UHGV virus genome: UHGV-1493261
Direction: 5' to 3' (one strand)
DNA length: 64,000 nucleotides
Source of the DNA: a virus
Below are positions 955-51,399 of this stretch, piece by piece. How positions within the stretch are numbered: position 1 is the stretch's first letter; every line of letters begins with the position of its first letter. The notes under the pieces are model-generated. The model ran no database searches and was not told the DNA's origin. It saw nothing but the letters and a program-made list of their open reading frames with translations. The position numbers were made by a program, and so were the translations under genes.

Positions 955-3669
955 ATGTCAAAGCTAAGTTTCCTCCAGTTCATGCAGGAAAGAGATCAGT
1001 TGGACGAAGCGTTCAACTCCGCTCCGTATGAGCTGACTATGGGTAAGAAGAACGCAGGCGATGTGTTCTTCACCTTCGTCGACGAAGATGAAAAGGAATA
1101 CCGTATTCAGTTCTATACCCCTCAGGGGCTGGGCAAGAGCGTTCGTCAGGTTTTCATCGGTCAGAAGCGCGGCTCCGTCTATCCTGACGCCATCGCTCGC
1201 TTCAAGAACCCAATGCGCGTTATCGCTTCCATGATCGAAGCGACCAAACAATTCATGGCGACTCCTCTGGGCAAGACCATCGATGGCTTTGCTGTCAACT
1301 TCTCGAAGAAAGCGCTGGATCGCGGTATGACCCTAATTCCTAAGATCATCCGCCAGTCCGGCCTGAAACAAAAACTGAATGTCATGGACCTGACCTACGC
1401 GCCTGTCCCTGACCGTGGTTATGTGTGGCTGGTCCGCAAGGGTAAAGATCCGGCTCAGGTATTCGACGGTCCGAAGATGCAGGGTATCACCTGGGATGAT
1501 CCAGACAAGGTCGGCGACGTTCCGGTTCAGAATAATACTTCGGATGTGGGAGTTGGGGCTGGTTCTTCTGAAATCGAAGTCAACCGCGAGTGGTACAACA
1601 GCTCGGACACTGGTCTGGAGTTGAAGAGCGGGCGAGACCCGATTCGTGGAAACTACGTCCGCCTGATAAGCGGTTCGAAAGAAGTAGCCGCATTCTATGG
1701 TTATGATTTTGACAAATATCCAGACGGGACTGAGGTATCTTGGAATATGAAGCGCGGCTTCACCAACCAAGACTTGGTCGGTGCGTCCATGACCAAACAG
1801 AAGAAAGGCATGTACGATCAGTACACTTTCAAGAAAGGTGCTCAGATAATTCTGGTGGTGGACGTTGACACCAGCAATGACACCAGCAATGACACCAGCA
1901 ATGACAACGGTTGGAAACTCACAAAAGCCGATGCCACTCAACCAATGTTAGTATGGGCGGGGAAAGAAAAAGGTCGCTTAGTCACGGCAAATATCGCTCC
2001 CCACTACAATGAGCCGGGCGTGTATGTTGGCGCATACATGAATGAGAAACCTGTGCGTGGGCAAAGTGCTGATTTCATTGCTCGTCAGTTGAAATTACCA
2101 CAAGTCCCTATCAGTATCCTGAATGATTTCACCACGGCGTCCACAAAATTTTGGAAAGGTTCTCAGCAGAAGTCCGCGCCAGCTGACTCTAACACCACAA
2201 TCGGGGCAACCAGTATCGATCAATTGCGTGACAGCGGTTTCATCGCTCGTGTTCTGGGTATCATTGATGCCAACATTGACCAGAAAGCAAGCCATCTCCC
2301 AGGGGAAAGCATTAAGAAGATCGGACAGGCACGTTATCAAACTAAAGGTGGTCTGGTGATCATCGTCAGCTTCGATTCAGTCGATGGCAAGAATCTGACC
2401 TACAACGTGTTCTCTGAAATCGAAACTCAGCCTGGTGTCATCTCTGGCGATGCTCGTCTGGTGGCAAACAAAATCATGGAAACGATCACACACGTGGCCA
2501 AACATCAGTACACTGGCAAATGGGAAATTAGCGCAGTGCCAACAAGCGCTCCATACCCTATCAAAGCCATTCGCCGTTCTCGGGGCTGGGGTTATGTGGA
2601 AACCGCAAACTGGACTCTGAAAGTGTCCGACGCTGTCCTGAATCGTGTGAAGCCAGGGAACACTGCTCTGCTGGAACTCATCAAAGAACCTCCTCGTGGC
2701 AAGCACCTGCTGGTAATCATCCCAGAGAAGGGCGACAAGACCCTGATGCTGAAAGATCGTATTAGCGGGGCCATCTATGGTTCTATCGACCTGAATGCCC
2801 AGGGTGCTGATATGGTCAACTCTGGAACCCTGAAGATGCCACGCAACGCCATGGTGTTTGGCGAGACTGTCAACGGTATGTCTATCACTTGGTCTGGAAT
2901 CAATTTCCCGAAAACTGGGAAGTATGATGGTGCTGTATTGACCACGAATGTGACCTATTACTACGACAAAGGAAAAGTCGCGTTCACACCGATGATCTCC
3001 CAGAAAGGGCGGCTGCTGAACAATCCGAAGACATATGAACTTCCTTTGAATAAAGACATTGTTCAGGCATTGATCGATGAAATTTCTTCTAAAATGGAAA
3101 TGATATCTCGGAATATGCAAACTCTGAAAAGCACGTCGCATAATCCGAAACAAGTATTTTTGGACGACATTTCTGTTGACAACAACGGTTCAGTCCTTTG
3201 GCGCGGGTACGACATGGCGGATCGCCGCACTAATGATTTTATGTTGGGTATCCTGTCCAAAGAAACCGAGAGACTGGAGAAAGAGTCGAGTACTGCGAAG
3301 AAGACTGGTGCCGACCTTGCGGCATACGCCGACTCCATCCGCGACAACGCACCAAAAGGTCGCGACCTGGATTGGCAGATCTATGCAAGCCGTGATGGTC
3401 AGACTCTGAACGTGGACTGGGATATCACCTTCCGCCGCAACACAACTGAAGGGGCATATCGCGAGTTCAAAGCTCAGATTGACCGCGCCAACCAGTACCT
3501 GCAGACTCTGTACCGGGATGCGAAGTCCAAGGGTTACAACCCGACTGAACCAAACCTGATGACTCTGGCTAGCGCCCAGCAGTCTGACCAGTGGTCACAA
3601 GACAACGGGGAAAGCGCATACAGCGAGTACGAGCAGTCCCTGGGTGGAAACATGCAGATCAAGATCTGA
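955..3669 (+). CDS. large hypothetical protein (904 aa) with internal DTSN x3 repeat
   Basis: Long uninterrupted ORF with SD CAGGAG; no family motif recognised. Confidence 0.6.
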   Translation: MSKLSFLQFMQERDQLDEAFNSAPYELTMGKKNAGDVFFTFVDEDEKEYRIQFYTPQGLGKSVRQVFIGQKRGSVYPDAIARFKNPMRVIASMIEATKQFMATPLGKTIDGFAVNFSKKALDRGMTLIPKIIRQSGLKQKLNVMDLTYAPVPDRGYVWLVRKGKDPAQVFDGPKMQGITWDDPDKVGDVPVQNNTSDVGVGAGSSEIEVNREWYNSSDTGLELKSGRDPIRGNYVRLISGSKEVAAFYGYDFDKYPDGTEVSWNMKRGFTNQDLVGASMTKQKKGMYDQYTFKKGAQIILVVDVDTSNDTSNDTSNDNGWKLTKADATQPMLVWAGKEKGRLVTANIAPHYNEPGVYVGAYMNEKPVRGQSADFIARQLKLPQVPISILNDFTTASTKFWKGSQQKSAPADSNTTIGATSIDQLRDSGFIARVLGIIDANIDQKASHLPGESIKKIGQARYQTKGGLVIIVSFDSVDGKNLTYNVFSEIETQPGVISGDARLVANKIMETITHVAKHQYTGKWEISAVPTSAPYPIKAIRRSRGWGYVETANWTLKVSDAVLNRVKPGNTALLELIKEPPRGKHLLVIIPEKGDKTLMLKDRISGAIYGSIDLNAQGADMVNSGTLKMPRNAMVFGETVNGMSITWSGINFPKTGKYDGAVLTTNVTYYYDKGKVAFTPMISQKGRLLNNPKTYELPLNKDIVQALIDEISSKMEMISRNMQTLKSTSHNPKQVFLDDISVDNNGSVLWRGYDMADRRTNDFMLGILSKETERLEKESSTAKKTGADLAAYADSIRDNAPKGRDLDWQIYASRDGQTLNVDWDITFRRNTTEGAYREFKAQIDRANQYLQTLYRDAKSKGYNPTEPNLMTLASAQQSDQWSQDNGESAYSEYEQSLGGNMQIKI
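1867..1902 (+). repeat. perfect 12-bp tandem repeat x3 (GACACCAGCAAT), in frame, encoding DTSN-DTSN-DTSN
   Basis: Three identical adjacent copies read directly. Confidence 0.9.
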
Positions 3670-3693: not shown

Positions 3694-3701
3694 TATAAAT
3701 A
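3694..3701 (+). promoter_or_regulatory. T4-type late promoter TATAAATA
   Basis: Exact TATAAATA octamer 25 nt upstream of the ATG at 3726. Confidence 0.6.
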
Positions 3702-3725
3702 ACTGAAATCCCCGAGGAGATTAAG

Positions 3726-4031
3726 ATGAAACCGTTTATCGAATATTTTAAAGAACAAGCCGCTAAACCTCAGACCCATGCTGGTGTCCAGGGTAAGACC
3801 GTATCCATCACCAAGCAAGCTGACGGCACCCAGTGGTGTTCCGGCGCTACCGTGACCCAGATCACTCCTGACAATCAGGCGGATGTCTACAACCTGGAGT
3901 TAACCAACGGCAACACCATCAAGGTGAAGCTGACCCCAGACCAGACTCACGGTATCTCCCAAGGTCAGGAAGTCGTTGCTGTCCATGACGGTTTCGAATT
4001 CTTCTTTGGCAAGCCTGCCGACAAAGACTAA
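3726..4031 (+). CDS. hypothetical late protein (101 aa)
   Basis: ORF with SD GAGGAG; preceded by a late promoter. Confidence 0.55.
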   Translation: MKPFIEYFKEQAAKPQTHAGVQGKTVSITKQADGTQWCSGATVTQITPDNQADVYNLELTNGNTIKVKLTPDQTHGISQGQEVVAVHDGFEFFFGKPADKD

Positions 4032-4062
4032 GTGAAACCATCAAGATGACTCTTGATCATAA

Positions 4063-4091
4063 TCCCCCTAAATACAGGGGGATTTCTTTTT
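4063..4091 (+). terminator. terminator hairpin TCCCCC-taaataca-GGGGGA + T-rich tail; loop carries a TAAATA late-promoter-like core (4067-4074)
   Basis: Inverted repeat plus TTTCTTTTT. Confidence 0.5.
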
Positions 4092-4105
4092 CTGAGGACA
4101 ACATC

Positions 4106-4459
4106 ATGGTCAATGCGAGTATTTTCATCAACCGTGGACTGCTTGCTATAGCCCACTCTCATGCCTTGCACTTCGTTACAACGTCCTATGCCAAGCACAA
4201 GGCACTCGGGGAGTTCTACGGGGATCTAGAGGACTTGCTGGACACGTTTACCGAAGCATACATCGGTGCAGGTGGTCAGTATGTTCCATCATTCGAGAAT
4301 ATCAAATTGTACAACCCAGACCCTATCTCCTATATTAACAGTGTGGTGATAGACGTCGATGGCATCTACAAGCAGTGTGACTCCCACCTTCAGAGCACTC
4401 TTGACGATATCAAGACACTGTGCTATCAGACGATCTACAAACTGAAGCAGCTGTCGTAA
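4106..4459 (+). CDS. hypothetical protein (117 aa)
   Basis: ATG at 4106 with GAGG 9 nt upstream; the track start at 4046 lies inside the terminator hairpin and is unlikely. Confidence 0.5.
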   Translation: MVNASIFINRGLLAIAHSHALHFVTTSYAKHKALGEFYGDLEDLLDTFTEAYIGAGGQYVPSFENIKLYNPDPISYINSVVIDVDGIYKQCDSHLQSTLDDIKTLCYQTIYKLKQLS

Positions 4460-4516
4460 GTCAATACGAAATAAAGGCATATAATTTTGCTCATTATTCA
4501 CCAAAAGGAAAGGACA

Positions 4517-5128
4517 ATGAGCAAAATCTTTATCCCGTCACACCGCGAAGGATGTGAAATCGCGGCCAACTACCTGCGCGGTCGCATGAACTGCGGCGCT
4601 GTCTTCATCGAGCCAAATTCGTTTGACAACAAAGAATCACCTGATGCCATCGGGTTCCGTTCCGGCGGTTGCTCTATCCTGATGGAAGTGAAGGTGTCTC
4701 GCTCTGATTTCCTTACCGACAAGAAGAAGCCTCATCGCATGGATCCGACGACGGGCATGGGCGCATACCGCTTTTATGTCTGCCCTCAGGACGTGATCAG
4801 GGTTGAAGACCTACCACCGAAGTGGGGGCTGTTCTACTTCACACCCCGCAAGTCCCTGATGCCAGTTCATGTGCCAGACATGCGGTACTCTTTATTGTCA
4901 TCACCAGATCATTATCAGAAGTACCTTGATGAACAGATCAAGAGAGGAAGAACCGTTACTCGGCATATGCGCAGCTACATGGAACTCCTCGAAGGCTTCG
5001 CCCACTTTGAGCGCAACACTGCCGGGGAGCAGAATATCCTGTATGGGGCTTGGCGCCAACTGTGTATAGCTCAAAGTCGTGGTGTAGACTATACTGTGAC
5101 CGAAGTGTTCCAGAGGCCGAAGATCTAA
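4517..5128 (+). CDS. putative PD-(D/E)xK-type nuclease
   Basis: Motif sPDaigf...ilmEvKvS; ATG at 4517 with SD AAAGGAAAGGA; stop overlaps the next start (TAATG). Confidence 0.4.
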   Translation: MSKIFIPSHREGCEIAANYLRGRMNCGAVFIEPNSFDNKESPDAIGFRSGGCSILMEVKVSRSDFLTDKKKPHRMDPTTGMGAYRFYVCPQDVIRVEDLPPKWGLFYFTPRKSLMPVHVPDMRYSLLSSPDHYQKYLDEQIKRGRTVTRHMRSYMELLEGFAHFERNTAGEQNILYGAWRQLCIAQSRGVDYTVTEVFQRPKI

Positions 5129-5784
5129 TGAACTATCAAAAAATTCATGACGCTATAATAACCAGAGCCAGGGATAGAATTTTAACTGGTTACAAGGAAA
5201 AACACCACGTCATCCCTCTATCTCTTGGTGGTGAAGACAGGAACTACAATAAAGTTTCTCTCACAGCATCTGAACATTATATTATTCATCTTCTGTTGGC
5301 AAAAATTCACGGCGGGGTAATGGTCAGCGCATTTAAAAAGATGCGCCACTTGACCTCTAATCCTCCAAACAATAAAGAATTTGCCGCCAGGAGGGAATTG
5401 TTGTGTACGACAGCCGGAGAGAAAGCGAAAGATCCACAAAAACGGAAAAATCATTCTCTGAAAATGAAGGGTAGAAACCATACAGAATCTACCAAATTGT
5501 CAATATCTAATTCCATGACTGGGGAGAATAACCCAATGAAGGGGATACCTGCATGGAGGAATCCGACCAACATCAGCCGAGGAACCCATAAAAATTGGTT
5601 GGCGGCTGGAGAAATTTATGACTTGTACATCACAGGGAAATTTTTAAGAGTTATCGACCTCTTCAATGCTTGCAAATTGCCGACATCATACGGAACGGTT
5701 TCCACCATAAAAACAAAATTGGAATTGGGTTGGAAACCAAGGAAAGACGCGGATTGGTTGCAATTCTATGAGGAACACAAATGA
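5128..5784 (+). CDS. HNH homing endonuclease (free-standing)
   Basis: Motif HHVIPLSLGGEDRNYNKVSLTASEHYIIH; visibly AT-richer than neighbours; translationally coupled on both sides. Confidence 0.7.
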   Translation: MNYQKIHDAIITRARDRILTGYKEKHHVIPLSLGGEDRNYNKVSLTASEHYIIHLLLAKIHGGVMVSAFKKMRHLTSNPPNNKEFAARRELLCTTAGEKAKDPQKRKNHSLKMKGRNHTESTKLSISNSMTGENNPMKGIPAWRNPTNISRGTHKNWLAAGEIYDLYITGKFLRVIDLFNACKLPTSYGTVSTIKTKLELGWKPRKDADWLQFYEEHK

Positions 5785-6839
5785 AATTTCTCGACGAACA
5801 ATTCATAAATTACGTTGCTCCCAGACTCGATAAATTCAAGTGGGAACGTGTTGGGTCTGTCGCAAATTTTAGATGCCCGCTTTGTGGAGATTCTCTCAAA
5901 AGTGCTAATAAGCGACGCGGTTATTTTTTCTTCGATCGAGATAATGATTGCTTTCGGTTCAAATGTCATAATTGCCATAACATGAATGGCTGGTCATTTG
6001 AGTTCTGGCTGAAGAAGTTCGACGAACGCCTCTCAACAGAGTACAACATGGAGAAGTTCCGTCTGCTGGGTGATACTTCGGGCAGACCACTTCCTTCCCT
6101 GAAGCCGTTGCCAAAGCTGACACAGACCGCCCGTATTGGCTCAGTGGCGGCAAAACGCGACGAGAGCCTCCTCGGCAATATGCTACGACTTGATCTGCTA
6201 CCGCCTGACCATAAGGCTCGACAGTACGTACAGTGGCGTGGACTGCCGGATAGCACTTTGTCCCTCCTGTATTACACACAGCACTTCCGCCAGGATCTAC
6301 TCCAGTTCGAAACGAACCCTGAGAAGCAGCTGAAAATTCCCGATGACGAGCGCCTGGTAATCCCATTCTGGACTCAGGATGGTCGCATGAAGATCGTTCA
6401 GGGGCGTGCATTCGACAAGAATGCGACACTGCGCTACGCAACAGTCAAGCCCAAGGATGAAGACACTAAGGTCTATGGTGAAGACCGGGTGAACATTCAC
6501 AAAACCAAGCTGGTTGTGGAAGGTCCGATTGACAGCCTGTTCCTACCCAACTGTCTTGCATCGGCCGACGCTGATCTACTGAGCGTGAAGGGTGACATTT
6601 ATATCCCTGATAATCAGTACCGGAACCCGCAGGTATGTGATGGCATTCAGAAGATGATAGATAAAGGTGTCAAGGTCGTCCTCTTCCCGCCGAATATTCC
6701 GTGGAAGGACATCAATGATATGGTCATGCCTTCGAAGGGTAACATGGCCATACGAGACCTCCTGAAGCTGATCGCCCAGAACGTCTACCAGGGGATGGCT
6801 GCATCACTGCAATTTGCTGAACTGAGGAAAGTGAGATGA
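5781..6839 (+). CDS. 61: DNA primase, T4 gp61-like
   Basis: N-terminal zinc ribbon CPLCGDS...CHNC; motifs VEGPIDSLF and WKDINDM match T4 gp61 as I recall it. Confidence 0.85.
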   Translation: MKFLDEQFINYVAPRLDKFKWERVGSVANFRCPLCGDSLKSANKRRGYFFFDRDNDCFRFKCHNCHNMNGWSFEFWLKKFDERLSTEYNMEKFRLLGDTSGRPLPSLKPLPKLTQTARIGSVAAKRDESLLGNMLRLDLLPPDHKARQYVQWRGLPDSTLSLLYYTQHFRQDLLQFETNPEKQLKIPDDERLVIPFWTQDGRMKIVQGRAFDKNATLRYATVKPKDEDTKVYGEDRVNIHKTKLVVEGPIDSLFLPNCLASADADLLSVKGDIYIPDNQYRNPQVCDGIQKMIDKGVKVVLFPPNIPWKDINDMVMPSKGNMAIRDLLKLIAQNVYQGMAASLQFAELRKVR

Positions 6840-7042
6840 CATTAGAAGAACTGAACAAACTGGACGACGGGGAGATCGTGCGGGGGTACTTGAAATCTCG
6901 TGAGGGGTATGTCCTATCTGGGGAAGAGTCTCCGAGTTTCATCCACGGCTGGAAGAATGGTCAGGTGGACTTCCATGGGGTTCCCATCAGTGCTGAGCAG
7001 GCCGAATTGGCTCGCGAGTTTGTAAGATTTCGCCCGAACTAA
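6836..7042 (+). CDS. small hypothetical protein (68 aa)
   Basis: ORF coupled to the primase stop (ATGA overlap). Confidence 0.4.
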   Translation: MTLEELNKLDDGEIVRGYLKSREGYVLSGEESPSFIHGWKNGQVDFHGVPISAEQAELAREFVRFRPN

Positions 7043-7070
7043 AACTTTTTACTTCACATTACTTCCCTCC

Positions 7071-7094
7071 AGGCCTCGTCGAATGAGGCCTTTT
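7071..7094 (+). terminator. terminator hairpin AGGCCTC-gtcgaat-GAGGCCT + TTTT
   Basis: Perfect 7-bp stem plus T run. Confidence 0.6.
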
Positions 7095-7134
7095 AAAATA
7101 CTTCAAAAATATTTTAAAAAATTATTGAAAAGAC

Positions 7135-15529: not shown

Positions 15530-17140
15530 TTACTCTTTGGTGCCGAAATTACCACCATTGTCTTTTAATTCTGCCTTGATGTCAATCTCACCCGGACCCG
15601 TAGGGGATGCAGGGGTTGCACCTGACAGAGAAGAAGCGCGACCAGCACCTTCGGCATATATGATGTTACCATTGATCGTCTGAGCGACAGTCAGTTTGTC
15701 AGCGATTATCTCAGTCGTTAGAATCTTAGGAACCTTCAATGTCCCGCCGACCTCCAGAGTCTCGCAGATAATGCGCAGAATATTCTGCGCTTGCATTTCC
15801 GCTAGGTCACTGAATTTCATCAGCGCTGTGCCCGCAACCACATTTGAGTAGTTGTTGGAATGCAAATGATAGACCTCACCTGTCTTGCGCTGAACTTCAG
15901 TTCCTTTGACCGTCAGGTTGTGGTCCCCGCCGACATAATAACGCTTGTTGAACATCGTCAGGTCATAGTGGTCTTTGACGGACTTGTTGACCACATCACC
16001 ATCCGGCAACATTTGCTTGTAAGACCCAGACTTATGCATCCAATGAAGACGTTCACCACCAGGGGTGTCATCCACTTCCATAATATGCCCAGCTCGGGAC
16101 ACCATGACGTTATTGTACGGGTATTTGGAGCCACCCGCAGCCGGAACTATGGTCTCTCCAGTGTTGTCAATATCCCGCACTCGCCCAGTGGGAGCCGGAG
16201 TCGGTTGTTCCTTTGGAGTACGATCTGGGATAGGTTCTGACCATTTACCATTCTGCTGAGCAGGCAAGGCTGTGGCTGTGTTAGCAGGACCAGGCCAACG
16301 ATACCCCAAGACCGAAGAACGTCTGAAACGACTGACCTTCACTGAATCGGATTGGTTGCCACCAATACACCAGACATAGTTTTCATCGAACTTCTGTACA
16401 AACGCCACGTGTCCAAATGTAGGGTTGTTACCACGCCGGAAGACTACGATAGCACCATATTGTGGTGCTGACAGTGGAGTGCCCCATGTAAGGTAAGATC
16501 GGGCAAGAGCGGAGCGTGTAGACGTGTATCCAGCCTGTATCATAACCCAACCCACGAACGCCGCACACCACGACACTTCATCTTCAGAAGCACCAAGGGA
16601 GGTTGTCTTGTGATATTCTATAATGCGCGGGTTGTTGTTGAACTTTCCGGCATACTCCTTGATACCCAATTCGCCACGAGCGATTGTCATCCACTTCTCT
16701 GGATCATACCCACCAACAGGTGGTTGTGGATCTGGTTGTGGTTCGTCTTCTTGTTTCACAGGAACGTCAGTGACAGCGTTGTACGCCTGACGTTCTACAG
16801 ATTGAACGACCTGCCCGAGAGCCAGCGGGTTTGTGTCGGCGCCATCAGTAGGGCTTGAACCAGTCCAAGTCCAGGTGATGCGTAAATTCTGGTATGCTTC
16901 GTCAAGGGCGAACCCCATAACCTCAGTGCCAGGAATGATACCCGTTGGAGACCAACCTAAACCAGCAGAGGAGGCATTTGAAGCAGGCATCAGTACCTTC
17001 GCCCATGGGAGTTTGTCTGTAGGCAGGAGGACGGGATCGTCGGTGTGTACGCCATATATGCGGACGGCGACGCGCCCGTTTTGGTCTGGATCGTTGACAT
17101 CTTCAACGGTGCCGTAAAACCATCTCATATTGTCTAACAT
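15530..17140 (-). CDS. 5: baseplate central spike: gp5-like N-terminal OB domain fused to a CHAP peptidase/amidase domain
   Basis: N-terminus WFYGTVEDVNDPDQNGRVAVRIYGVH...LPWAKVL; CHAP Cys (SWCAAFVGWV) and His (GHVAFV). Confidence 0.7.
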   Translation of the reverse strand: MLDNMRWFYGTVEDVNDPDQNGRVAVRIYGVHTDDPVLLPTDKLPWAKVLMPASNASSAGLGWSPTGIIPGTEVMGFALDEAYQNLRITWTWTGSSPTDGADTNPLALGQVVQSVERQAYNAVTDVPVKQEDEPQPDPQPPVGGYDPEKWMTIARGELGIKEYAGKFNNNPRIIEYHKTTSLGASEDEVSWCAAFVGWVMIQAGYTSTRSALARSYLTWGTPLSAPQYGAIVVFRRGNNPTFGHVAFVQKFDENYVWCIGGNQSDSVKVSRFRRSSVLGYRWPGPANTATALPAQQNGKWSEPIPDRTPKEQPTPAPTGRVRDIDNTGETIVPAAGGSKYPYNNVMVSRAGHIMEVDDTPGGERLHWMHKSGSYKQMLPDGDVVNKSVKDHYDLTMFNKRYYVGGDHNLTVKGTEVQRKTGEVYHLHSNNYSNVVAGTALMKFSDLAEMQAQNILRIICETLEVGGTLKVPKILTTEIIADKLTVAQTINGNIIYAEGAGRASSLSGATPASPTGPGEIDIKAELKDNGGNFGTKE

Positions 17141-17174
17141 ATTGAGTTCCGGTTGTCAAACAAGGATTTGAAGG

Positions 17175-17182
17175 TATTTATG
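17175..17182 (-). promoter_or_regulatory. late-promoter-like CATAAATA, 35 nt upstream of the gp5-like start
   Basis: Minus-strand read of 17175-17182. Confidence 0.35.
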
Positions 17183-17481
17183 CGCAGCTGATTTTGCCTT
17201 ATATACTATAGGAAGCTCTGCTTCCGTTCATTTTATTTGTTTTATTCGATCCTATTCGCTTCGCTCATCAAACCGCCCTATGCGGGCAGCACCATTCCAA
17301 TGCCATGGAGGCATAAGGGCGAGGCAATAACTGTACACCCCAGAACACTCCTTGAAAAATGGTATTTTACTGACAATCTGATTCAAAACAAACAAACACC
17401 AACAAATGACTCGGGAACAAGCCCATTATAGCAATTTCAGGTAAAGAGAGTGCGTGTTAACCGATTTTACAGTTAAGCCAA

Positions 17482-17505
17482 TAAAAATCCCGCCGAAGCG
17501 GGATT
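17482..17505 (-). terminator. terminator hairpin AATCCCGC-ttcg-GCGGGATT + TTTTT (minus strand)
   Basis: Perfect 8-bp stem plus T run downstream of the gene ending at 17653. Confidence 0.6.
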
Positions 17506-17652
17506 ACTGTTTCTTAGACAACCTGACCTTGAGGGCTTCGGTTAACAAGTCAAGATGCCATGGCATCGACTCGTTGATTTCAAATATGCTATAGCCGTGT
17601 AACTTCAATTCATCACACATCACGAAGTAGGATAATAAATCAGTTTCAAACA

Positions 17653-46795: not shown

Positions 46796-47424
46796 CCCAC
46801 AACCTCCAGTCCCATCAGATCTTCCATGGTCTTCTGAATACGCAGCCAGTCAAGCGCAGCGTCATAACGAGGGTCGTGATAGACCATACCTTCCAGTTCC
46901 CACGCCTTGATGCCAGCATACCGATCCTGCTGTCCAACACCCTTCAGCCAACTCACGATGTCGAACGTGTGGTGGTAATCCCATGGCTCGTTGGAGTCCT
47001 GCTTACACGTCACTTCAATGATGTGCTGAGCCTTGCGTAGATCGAACAAGTTACGGTCACACCAGTCAACCGAGCGCGGGTCTACCCCAAGACGATGACA
47101 ACCCTTGCGGATTTCATCGGCCAATTGGAAGATAGAGATGTCATCTTCCTTGGGATACAGACTGACGGCGCGAGCCGCATCACACGGGTTGCGCTTGCCC
47201 GTGCCCAGCCACCATTCAACTGTCCCAGCGTCCTTCACGCGACCAAGTTCGAGCTGCTCTTTGACATTCAGCTTAATGAACGTCGTGCGCTCCTCAACCA
47301 GCTGCTGAAGAGTATAACGCTTGGTCAGGTCGGCGATGGTGTGTGCCCAAGACAGCATGACTGCATCATCCCAGCGCCCCAGGGTTTCGCTGTCGGCCAC
47401 AGCCAAAAAATTTGATTTATACAT
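46792..47424 (-). CDS. DEDD-family 3'-5' exonuclease (DexA-like)
   Basis: Exo I-like ADSET and Exo III-like YHDPRYDA. Confidence 0.5.
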   Translation of the reverse strand: MYKSNFLAVADSETLGRWDDAVMLSWAHTIADLTKRYTLQQLVEERTTFIKLNVKEQLELGRVKDAGTVEWWLGTGKRNPCDAARAVSLYPKEDDISIFQLADEIRKGCHRLGVDPRSVDWCDRNLFDLRKAQHIIEVTCKQDSNEPWDYHHTFDIVSWLKGVGQQDRYAGIKAWELEGMVYHDPRYDAALDWLRIQKTMEDLMGLEVVG

Positions 47425-47668
47425 GTTTATTCTCCCAACACTTTATTTTGGCTTTTACTGTATAATAATTTTCATCAATGAACTTTTTGTTGACGCGCTT
47501 AATTTCTATCTCTGGGCAAAGTAACCCTATAGTTTCCCTCAAAATCTGGCTCACCCTGGCCTGTGAAATACAATAAATTTCTGATACTTCTTTCGAACTA
47601 GATCCAGACATGACAAGTTTTAGAATATTGACCTTTTTATAAAATTCTTGATCAAACGCGCATATCAT
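47417..47668 (-). CDS. small sigma-70 region-4-like HTH protein
   Basis: EVSEIYCISQARVSQILRETI resembles sigma region 4.2; the gene is strongly AT-rich. Confidence 0.4.
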   Translation of the reverse strand: MICAFDQEFYKKVNILKLVMSGSSSKEVSEIYCISQARVSQILRETIGLLCPEIEIKRVNKKFIDENYYTVKAKIKCWENKHV

Positions 47669-47671
47669 TAT

Positions 47672-48286
47672 TCACCCCTCCTCGTCGATGATTTCTTGCT
47701 CATCTTCGACAATCATGATACCTTCTGTGTCTAGATGAGAAAGTTCCATCAGATCATCATCGAATCCGTCTCCTTCCCTGATATAGAAGACTGGGACGAC
47801 ACGGCGGCGGGTCTCTTCATACACGCTTTCAGAGATTCGATTGATATGGCGCACTACACTGTAGAGGTTCAGGCCACCAATACCACAGCCGATAGCAGGC
47901 AGGCCGACATAGACAGTTTCGTCTTTAGTTGCTTCCACAATTTCATGCACCTGCTCAAACAGGGTCTGAACAGAACTGATGACTGACGGCATTCGAGCGT
48001 TCGGGCCTGGATAAAACTGAGTGTAGAGGTTCGCACCCCAGACACCAGTGCTATGGTCAAATGCATAGGACATGCCACCCAGGCGTTGCTCTGGACCACG
48101 AGGGTCGTTCGCATCGACTTCGCGCAGCGCTGGGAAGTTGTTGCCGATGTGCAGGGCAATACCCGCGCCCATGGTAGACCAACAGTTGGCACCGTGGGCA
48201 AAGATGTCGATCAGATTGAAGCTACAGGCGGCTTTCAGTAAATCGCCGCCATTGATTACATAGGCTGTCATGCGTACTGTCTCCAT
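47672..48286 (-). CDS. macro-domain protein (ADP-ribose binding/processing)
   Basis: Macro-like N-terminal pattern VINGGDLL...FAHGANCWSTMGAGIA. Confidence 0.5.
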   Translation of the reverse strand: METVRMTAYVINGGDLLKAACSFNLIDIFAHGANCWSTMGAGIALHIGNNFPALREVDANDPRGPEQRLGGMSYAFDHSTGVWGANLYTQFYPGPNARMPSVISSVQTLFEQVHEIVEATKDETVYVGLPAIGCGIGGLNLYSVVRHINRISESVYEETRRRVVPVFYIREGDGFDDDLMELSHLDTEGIMIVEDEQEIIDEEG

Positions 48287-50949: not shown

Positions 50950-51399
50950 TTACCCACGATAACCTCCCACTTCATATGGATCGACAATGTAGTCCACAAT
51001 CCAAGTTTCAAGTTTTACCGCCAGAGGAGATTTGTCTTCTTCATCCAGGGTGTAATATCTTTTGCCAGTACCCTTCAGTGGGTCGTACACAACAAGTTTT
51101 TCATGACGAGTGTCTAAGATGATCTGGTGCAATAACCCTGGCGTTGCTGGACTTGGCACGCAAAGCAGATAAACATAATCATGATAGATGGTGGCAGTTT
51201 GGTTGATCCCTTTCCCTTGCAAGAACGGAACCCCTTCCATACAAAGAACGTCACCAATCGTGGTTTCCCAATTCGCGAAACTTTCATGCCATATTTCAGC
51301 AACCTCGGCGACCGGACGCTCAAGTAACATCGCCAGGCACGTTGACATACACGTGTCTTTTGTTGGCTGCATCTGATGAGTTAGTGGATATTCCATCAT
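50950..51399 (-). CDS. peptidase C39-like (papain-fold cysteine peptidase) domain protein
   Basis: QMQPTKDTCMSTCLAML (Gln/Cys box) and HEKLVVYDP (His box); ATGA overlap with the gp39 stop. Confidence 0.5.
   Translation of the reverse strand: MMEYPLTHQMQPTKDTCMSTCLAMLLERPVAEVAEIWHESFANWETTIGDVLCMEGVPFLQGKGINQTATIYHDYVYLLCVPSPATPGLLHQIILDTRHEKLVVYDPLKGTGKRYYTLDEEDKSPLAVKLETWIVDYIVDPYEVGGYRG

Follow-up and report, generated by a model that had tools for sequence, protein, structure and literature searches.

Immediately upstream of the DNA primase gene in the analyzed phage genome, two unrelated elements very probably meet: a free-standing, promoterless homing endonuclease gene (HEG) of the HNH type, which belongs to the T4 Mob family and is orthologous to F-LimV, and a vertically inherited gene for an MmcB-like protein (ORF1). 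The HNH gene is a selfish mobile HEG whose type has been annotated before, as F-LimV in related phages; this is ordinary known biology. Rather than a new system of defense or against the host, the locus holds a textbook free-standing HEG beside a resident repair-type nuclease; what is added here are the limits of the primase segment apparently co-converted with the HEG, and a testable target prediction for a Mob-type enzyme.

The window (the whole 64,000-nt stretch of DNA that was analyzed) comes from a phage of the Ackermannviridae (Aglimvirinae). Its region 3700–7050 is 96.6% identical to Escherichia phage YX22, 90–92% identical to Dickeya limestoneviruses and Agtrevirus phages, also Aglimvirinae, and ~72% identical to Kuttervirus phages. 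The gene order is common to all relatives: a large structural gene, a small structural gene, a Dps-like DUF5856 gene, ORF1, the HNH gene where present, primase, and a small ORF. The features of the locus are as follows.

4517–5128, + strand: ORF1, predicted MmcB-like PD-(D/E)xK nuclease-fold protein, 203 aa from ATG; resident Ackermannviridae gene, outside the mobile element
5128–5784, + strand: ORF2, free-standing Mob-type HNH homing endonuclease gene, F-LimV ortholog, 218 aa
5128–5132, + strand: left insertion junction, ATGAA; HNH start and copy of the empty-site primase start sequence
5770–5785, + strand: right junction, GAGGAA and ATGAA; HNH 3′ end and primase start, read from the sequence
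5781–5981, + strand: HEG-linked AT-rich primase 5′ allele (codons 1–67, zinc-ribbon region), defined by identity, GC3 and fixed differences
5781–6839, + strand: DNA primase gene, presumed target gene; 352 aa, phrog_47 DNA primase at 4.2e-78, annotated as primase in all relatives

The gene coordinates, overlapping stop and start codons, HNH motif and low GC content of the HNH gene given in the first-pass annotation are confirmed by the ORFs, an alignment of 36 homologs, and base composition. The ORF1 stop codon TAA (5126–5128) and the HNH start codon ATG (5128–5130) share one nucleotide (TAATG at 5126–5130), and the HNH stop codon TGA (5782–5784) overlaps the primase ATG (5781–5783) as ATGA at 5781–5784. 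The two overlaps bear out the translational coupling into the primase operon that had been proposed. Promoter-like and terminator-like sites were looked for on the + strand at 4889–7134, and none were seen; since this includes the insert, we treat the latter as a promoterless cassette. No paralogs of ORF1 or the HNH gene were found elsewhere in the window by tblastn.

Empty and occupied states of the ORF1–primase junction

Comparison of synteny with relatives lacking the insertion, suggested as a check in the first-pass annotation, yields clean empty sites without ORF2 in RPN242 and Ag3 (Aglimvirinae) and in KE27 (Kuttervirus). In these genomes ORF1 directly adjoins the primase gene, with the ORF1 TAA overlapping the primase ATG. 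The junction sequence at the empty site of RPN242 and PC3 is GATCTAATGAAATTT. The aligned sequence of the empty site is ...CCAGAGGC(C/A)GAAGATCTAATGAAATTT..., and that of the window, GATCTA/ATGAAC...CACAA/ATGAAATTT, slashes marking the edges of the inserted DNA, which comprises 653 nt (5128–5780) with ATGAA at each end. A Shine-Dalgarno-like sequence, GAGGAA (5770–5775), is located inside the HNH 3′ end, six bases upstream of the primase ATG.

The HEG is inserted precisely where the ORF1 stop codon meets the primase start codon. In the scenario we propose, its own translation would rely on the stop/start overlap with ORF1, and it would supply the primase with a new Shine-Dalgarno sequence and the ATGA overlap, so that the essential downstream gene would have a replacement ribosome-binding site provided by the element itself.

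Orthologs of the HNH gene with at least 95% identity are present in 21 phage records only, namely all 19 Dickeya records, YX22, and pSal-SNUABM-02, and a variant with 60–80% identity, in 13 phage records. A second HEG subtype (223–224 aa, 62% identical to the window protein) occupies the same junction in Se-J (Kuttervirus) and Trex_ER12 (Klebsiella phage). As all 19 Dickeya records carry the gene, in Dickeya limestoneviruses the HEG looks fixed rather than actively invading.

Other genomes show further states of the junction. Phage maane retains a 54-aa HNH remnant with an in-frame internal deletion, the first 38 residues being fused to the last 16. PC3-group phages have no HNH gene, and their ORF1 is internally deleted and frameshifted, but they keep most of the HEG-linked primase allele described below. 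In Yersinia phage CAU_YEP3, ORF1 is lost entirely and its place is taken by another Mob-like HNH gene, which encodes 276 aa and has only the last ~55 nt in common with the F-LimV type. An unrelated 94-aa ORF is located at the junction in CECAV_050 and Gloob; we weighed an origin as an HNH remnant and dismissed it, as there is no similarity. In total, at least four different kinds of occupants are observed. The junction is an insertion hotspot, and this genome series displays the whole cycle of gain, decay and loss of the element. It could serve as a ready test system, comprising the full HEG, the second subtype, a remnant, the empty site, HEG-less genomes with the linked allele, and an HEG replacing ORF1.

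The HNH protein and its known relatives

The HNH protein matches phrog_655, “homing endonuclease,” at 3.5e-53, and carries the NUMOD3 DNA-binding motif at residues 115–139 (Pfam, 1.1e-6). In the Pfam and NCBIfam scans no HNH model reached the threshold, NUMOD3 being the only Pfam match. The HNH catalytic motif occupies residues ~20–60, and H26, H27, N41, H50, and H54 are invariant in the 36 homologs, as are Y3, E24, P30, G35, L45, E49, L56, and L57. Residues 22–54 align with the HNH motif of McrA, YxExHHViPLSxGGxDxxxNxVxLxxxxHxxxH. The AF2 model is confident for residues 1–140, with pLDDT >90 at the HNH element, and places a beta-beta-alpha element within residues 24–61 (strands 24–27 and 42–45, helix 47–61). 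Fold searches with the whole model gave no significant matches, the best Foldseek matches being HNH domains; likewise, a single-sequence search of solved structures yielded weak HNH-motif matches only.

The limestonevirus ortholog, annotated F-LimV, is 95.4% identical to the window protein at the amino acid level. In the genome of Dickeya phage vB_DsoM_LIMEstone1, it is listed as ORF76, a putative free-standing MobE homolog with an HNH motif and with DNA primase (ORF75) as the downstream gene (Adriaenssens et al., 2012; PMC3296691), the name having been given from annotation alone. F-LimV (218 aa, 95% amino acid identity) occupies the same position, flanked by the ORF1 homolog (ORF77) and the primase (ORF75), with the same start/stop overlaps and the same linked primase 5′ allele. 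The difference is that the phage carrying the window gene has another host (Escherichia/Salmonella-type Aglimvirinae), and that the flanks are more diverged than the HEG.

Among experimentally studied enzymes, the closest parallel is MobE of phage T4 (Wilson and Edgell, 2009; PMC2790892). The identity between MobE and the window protein is about 34–40% over residues 1–139 (tblastn: RB5 mobE, 40% over residues 1–128, E = 1e-16; T6 MobE, 34% over residues 1–139, E = 2e-12); T4 mobD is 48% identical over residues 1–61 (E = 3e-9). Both proteins combine an N-terminal HNH domain with a distinct C-terminal DNA-binding region, and both are encoded by promoterless cassettes placed within a pre-existing operon and flanked by two conserved genes of DNA metabolism, nrdA and nrdB in the case of mobE. 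MobE nicks the 5′ region of the neighboring nrdB, with a recombination point in the first 189 nt of that gene (PMC2790892); the window enzyme would likewise attack its neighboring gene in the 5′ region, and the recombination boundary is in both cases ~200 nt into it. The systems differ in the site, which is ribonucleotide reductase for MobE and primase here, and in the C-terminal domain; moreover, no internal terminator-like hairpin was detected in the window insert. Nicking and mobility have been demonstrated for MobE, whereas for the window enzyme they are predicted.

The HEG has dN/dS of 0.15–0.23, and thus the endonuclease ORF is under purifying selection.

Base composition, the exchanged block and the predicted target

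The GC content of the HNH gene is 0.408, compared to the window mean of 0.494, placing it in the lowest 0.25% of windows of 657 nt, and its GC3 of 0.434 is the lowest among 71 ORFs (mean 0.582, sd 0.053), the neighboring genes having GC3 of 0.57–0.66. The low GC content of the HNH gene is beyond chance. The low-GC tract runs past the HNH stop codon, ~200 nt into the primase gene, to about position 5990, an extension missed by the first-pass annotation. In primase positions 5781–5990, GC is 0.395 and GC3 0.371, compared to GC3 of 0.622 in the remainder of the gene. Other low-GC islands of the window (~17.0–19.1, 24.6–25.5, and 47.4–48.1 kb) were considered as possible homing endonucleases and dismissed, PHROG matches there being to baseplate hub, phosphatase, exonuclease, and unknowns.

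The AT-rich tract at 5128–5990 covers two translation-initiation regions, and instead of a foreign origin one could invoke local functional constraint, e.g., a need for weak mRNA structure in translational coupling. However, HEG-less relatives encode nearly the same primase N-terminus (63/70 aa identical) with GC3 of 0.66–0.70 at the same codons, compared to 0.36–0.37 in HEG-carrying genomes. Low GC content thus tracks the HEG, not the position, and an explanation by constraint seems extremely improbable.

The same segment stands out by identity. Compared to HEG-less Aglimvirinae, the window is 95–99% identical at 5041–5127, just upstream of the insert, 67–77% at 5781–5990, and again 97–100% at 5991–6060, while compared to HEG-carrying phages it is 94–100% identical at 5781–5990. 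HEG-carrying and HEG-less genomes are separated by 43 fixed differences spanning 5792–5981, with none in at least 50 nt beyond 5981. The differences are mostly synonymous, with pS of ~1.0 in the primase 5′ block, 0.10 in ORF1, and 0.20 in the remaining primase. Wherever the HNH gene is present, the ~200 nt at the primase 5′ end are of the AT-rich type.

The second HEG subtype provides an independent replicate with the same block boundary. In Se-J compared to KE27, primase nucleotides 1–210 are 71–79% identical, the next 70 nt, 100%, and the remaining gene, 96–99%. In Se-J compared to Trex_ER12, the interval from the HEG start to ~5981 is 94–100% identical and the flanks 58–77% (~75% on each side), the identity collapsing between 5982 and 5996. 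A similar trend is seen between the window and LIMEstone1, where dS is 0.126 in the HEG, lower than in ORF1 (0.457) and in the rest of the primase gene (0.339). The left edge of the exchanged block is exactly the HNH start codon, with ORF1 outside.

Judging from these comparisons, the moving unit is the HNH gene together with primase codons 1–67, a block of ~850 bp (5128–5981) that originates from a more AT-rich donor and crosses genus boundaries. Given the empty sites, the block transfer between genera, the phrog_655 match and the lowest GC3, the original suggestion of a free-standing HEG that moves horizontally holds for the HNH gene. As a practical consequence, the primase 5′ end is recombinant in HEG-carrying phages, and should be masked when primase serves as a phylogenetic marker.

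The block pattern has the appearance of “intronless homing” with co-conversion, which was demonstrated experimentally for T4 MobE. Free-standing phage endonucleases cut hundreds of base pairs from their own gene, within a neighboring conserved gene, and repair from the HEG-carrying genome co-converts the interval (PMC2988022). The T4 endonucleases SegF and SegG, studied in T4 × T2 crosses (PMC2988022), are similar in that the endonuclease gene is distant from the cut site, flanking polymorphisms are co-converted, and a segment of the neighboring gene is excluded locally (marker exclusion). They differ in being GIY-YIG enzymes, while the window enzyme is of the HNH type, and here co-conversion is read from natural genome comparisons rather than crosses.

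By analogy, in a mixed infection the enzyme would nick or cut the primase 5′ region of an HEG-less phage, and the broken DNA would be repaired from the HEG-carrying genome, so that the HNH gene would be copied along with the 5′-terminal ~200 nt of the primase. The AT-rich, synonymously recoded primase 5′ allele would protect HEG-carrying genomes from their own enzyme. The co-converted segment probably contains or abuts the endonuclease target, and the predicted target is the 5′ ~200 nt (zinc-ribbon region, codons 1–70) of HEG-less Ackermannviridae primase alleles; both the endonuclease activity and the target position are predicted here from sequence. A computational search for the cleavage site among the 43 fixed differences over 5792–5981 revealed no cluster common to both HEG subtypes. 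Only six scattered positions, forming no cluster, are shared by HEG-less alleles across the two subfamilies and differ in both HEG-carrying subtypes.

It is also possible, albeit unlikely, that the same homing element targets the ORF1–primase junction that is split by the insertion, in which case the AT-rich primase segment would be a hitchhiking donor remnant and not an immunity allele. Such a target would fit the precise insertion at the conserved GATCTAATGAAATTT and the use of one junction by at least four different occupants, and the 100% conserved stretch past 5982 could be the first good homology for resolving recombination. On the other hand, in characterized free-standing phage endonucleases the cut site is remote and lies within a neighboring gene (PMC2988022), and the conversion tract is strongly one-sided, with the same end (5981–5996) in three independent comparisons involving two HEG subtypes. 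Moreover, the PC3 group, which has no HEG, retains most of the linked primase allele, which fits an immunity allele kept after HEG loss. We therefore prefer a target in the primase 5′ region.

With homing onto the primase 5′ region as the preferred reading, two further possibilities concern the present role of the gene. One is that it no longer moves, being a domesticated or defunct relic, either a non-homing nuclease in phage DNA metabolism or an inactive passenger. Its fixation in all sequenced Dickeya limestoneviruses would agree with that, as would the fact that for many T4 mob genes activity has never been shown (PMC2988022, Table 1). However, the HNH catalytic residues are all intact, dN/dS is low as given above, HEGs from distant hosts are more alike than their flanks, and the sister subtype has near-identical copies across genera; decay, when it happens, is visible, as in the degraded maane copy. 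We consider a relic quite improbable. The other, rather improbable, is a composite unit of the HNH gene and the primase zinc-ribbon codons 1–67, with homing repeatedly swapping the primase template-recognition module between phage genera; if so, it could alter priming specificity or bring a selectable benefit beyond selfish spread. The taxa concerned are Kuttervirus and the Klebsiella phage genus, and the Escherichia, Salmonella, and Dickeya Aglimvirinae. A variant in which the neighboring MmcB-like nuclease helps to turn an HNH nick into a recombinogenic break is still less likely.

ORF1, the resident upstream neighbor

At the level of at least 60% identity, ORF1 is present in about 270 Ackermannviridae records, in a single copy and at the same position, with or without the HNH gene. 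The syntenic homologs have amino acid identities of 95–98% in Aglimvirinae, ~75% in Kuttervirus, ~63% in Klebsiella, 54% in Serratia, and 37% in Vibrio ackermannviruses. The N-terminal domain of ORF1 is also found in Stx and Vibrio siphophages; the genome context of these distant homologs consists mostly of hypothetical early genes and is uninformative.

ORF1 matches phrog_631 at 1.7e-77, weaker matches including phrog_5429, “DNA repair protein.” The residues invariant in 38 homologs include H9, E40, D43, E57, K59, D64, D68, K71, and R74, and in ORF1 the core alpha-beta-beta-beta-alpha-beta fold bears the D...(D/E)xK catalytic residues, which are intact. The PD...ExK motif previously reported in this gene is thereby corroborated by the invariance of E40, D43, E57, and K59. 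A profile search against PD-(D/E)xK families, recommended at the same time, gave a divided result. The profile of ORF1 homologs matches PDB 3dnx (SPO1766, MmcB-like family, PF06319) at E = 1.3e-4, and Cas4 weakly, while ORF1 itself falls below the Pfam threshold, with no match at E ≤ 0.1 and none in NCBIfam. PF06319 is touched by two of the 38 homologs, at best at 5.4e-4, and a single-sequence search of solved structures with ORF1 yielded nothing useful.

Thus, a distant MmcB-like relative is the most fitting description of ORF1. MmcB has been described as an endonuclease of the PD-(D/E)xK type, protecting Caulobacter from mitomycin C (PMC9578287). Compared to MmcB of Caulobacter crescentus and SPO1766, ORF1 is phage-encoded, resides constitutively beside the primase gene, and is not SOS-regulated. 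Most likely, its product serves to repair or process phage DNA. ORF1 is dispensable in some lineages, namely the PC3 group and CAU_YEP3.

The first-pass annotation regarded ORF1 and the HNH gene as a two-nuclease accessory cassette, acquired together and working as a pair, be it for homing as a composite element or against the host or a competitor. The two genes are indeed adjacent and translationally coupled, and both proteins have nuclease folds or motifs; besides, Mob-type HNH enzymes are nickases (PMC2988022), and a second nuclease could in principle aid a double-strand break. However, RPN242, Ag3, KE27, and the majority of the about 270 Ackermannviridae records have ORF1 but no HNH gene, CAU_YEP3 has an HNH gene without ORF1, the GC3 of ORF1 is native (0.618), and the exchanged block begins exactly at the HNH ATG, leaving ORF1 out. 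Joint acquisition is therefore very improbable, and the notion of a cassette has to be abandoned. Of the two options originally considered, a homing element is retained for the HNH gene, and the anti-host nuclease pair is discarded, ORF1 being resident, native in composition and outside the block. Universal conservation in relatives together with core-like GC content and codon usage had been named as evidence against acquisition of the two genes: the HNH gene is neither universal nor native in composition, whereas ORF1 is both near-universal and native. Hence, ORF1 is the vertically inherited upstream neighbor of an insertion hotspot, and not cassette cargo.

Finally, ORF1 homologs are named “adenylosuccinate synthase” in several GenBank records. 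This name is wrong, and the annotation of these homologs should be corrected to MmcB-like PD-(D/E)xK protein.

Alternative occupants of the ORF1/primase junction

The junction between ORF1, the resident gene of an MmcB-like protein, and the primase gene, where the F-LimV-type homing endonuclease gene (HEG) is inserted, has other occupants in relatives (coordinates with an L number are those of the relative's own locus). Yersinia phage CAU_YEP3 has no ORF1, and a different Mob-like HNH gene, encoding 276 aa, is found in its place (L013, 2536–3366). Its product is 31% identical to the F-LimV type at the amino acid level, and only the first approximately ten codons and the last approximately 55 nt of the gene are common to both. 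Hence, one endonuclease gene has replaced another at the same site.

Some Agtrevirus phages, CECAV_050 (L006, 2522–2806) and Gloob (L007, 3644–3928), have at this junction an AT-rich ORF of 94 aa, of unknown function and unrelated to the HNH gene, and retain the GC-rich primase allele typical of HEG-less phages. In Salmonella phage maane (L011, 4424–4588) we observe a 54-aa in-frame remnant of a Se-J-type HNH gene, in which 38 aa from the N-terminus of the protein are followed directly by 16 aa from its C-terminus; little of the catalytic motif is left, though the annotation reads "homing endonuclease".

Loss of ORF1 and probable loss of the HEG

In five Escherichia phages of the Aglimvirinae, PC3 (L004, 2270–2716), PH4, A221, ZQ1, and LHE287, ORF1 is frameshifted and has an internal deletion of approximately 410 nt, hence the MmcB-like nuclease is dispensable. 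All five are devoid of the HNH gene and still carry most of the AT-rich 5' primase allele linked to the HEG, and this retention of the allele suggests that the HEG was once present in these phages and subsequently lost.

In GenBank, the ORF1 homologs of ChubbyThor, Gloob, AR2819, and VA-RY-4 bear the name "putative adenylosuccinate synthase". This identity is not supported by Pfam, PHROG, or structure results, the fold being that of MmcB-like PD-(D/E)xK proteins.

Variation upstream of ORF1 and elsewhere in the window

Variability extends to the junction on the upstream side of ORF1, where Enterobacter phage EspM4VN has an additional 510-nt ORF (L014, 2052–2561) between the Dps-like gene and ORF1. 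The Dps-like gene itself (DUF5856; window 4046–4459) bears the RefSeq name "starvation-inducible transcriptional regulator", and its LIMEstone1 counterpart, ORF078, is a detected virion structural protein.

Comparison with two relatives (L002, 1527–2345; L005, 828–1646) revealed a deletion of approximately 480 nt at window 4031–4046, shared with RPN242 and YX22; LIMEstone1, Ag3, and Kuttervirus have the segment. As a result of the deletion, a confirmed structural protein is shortened from 189 to 101 aa (ORF 3726–4031) and a 240-nt ORF is largely lost. GTGA(A) microhomology is common to both breakpoints.

PHROG matches in other low-GC islands (window approximately 17000–19100, 24600–25500, and 47400–48100) include no homing endonuclease, and represent baseplate hub, phosphatase, exonuclease, and unknown-function families. 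The ORF at 50950–51399 also has low GC3 (0.447). The 904-aa ORF at 955–3669 (phrog_3867, unknown function) contains a short tandem peptide repeat, three copies of DTSN, near residue 300, and its length, as compared in annotation tables, differs among relatives.
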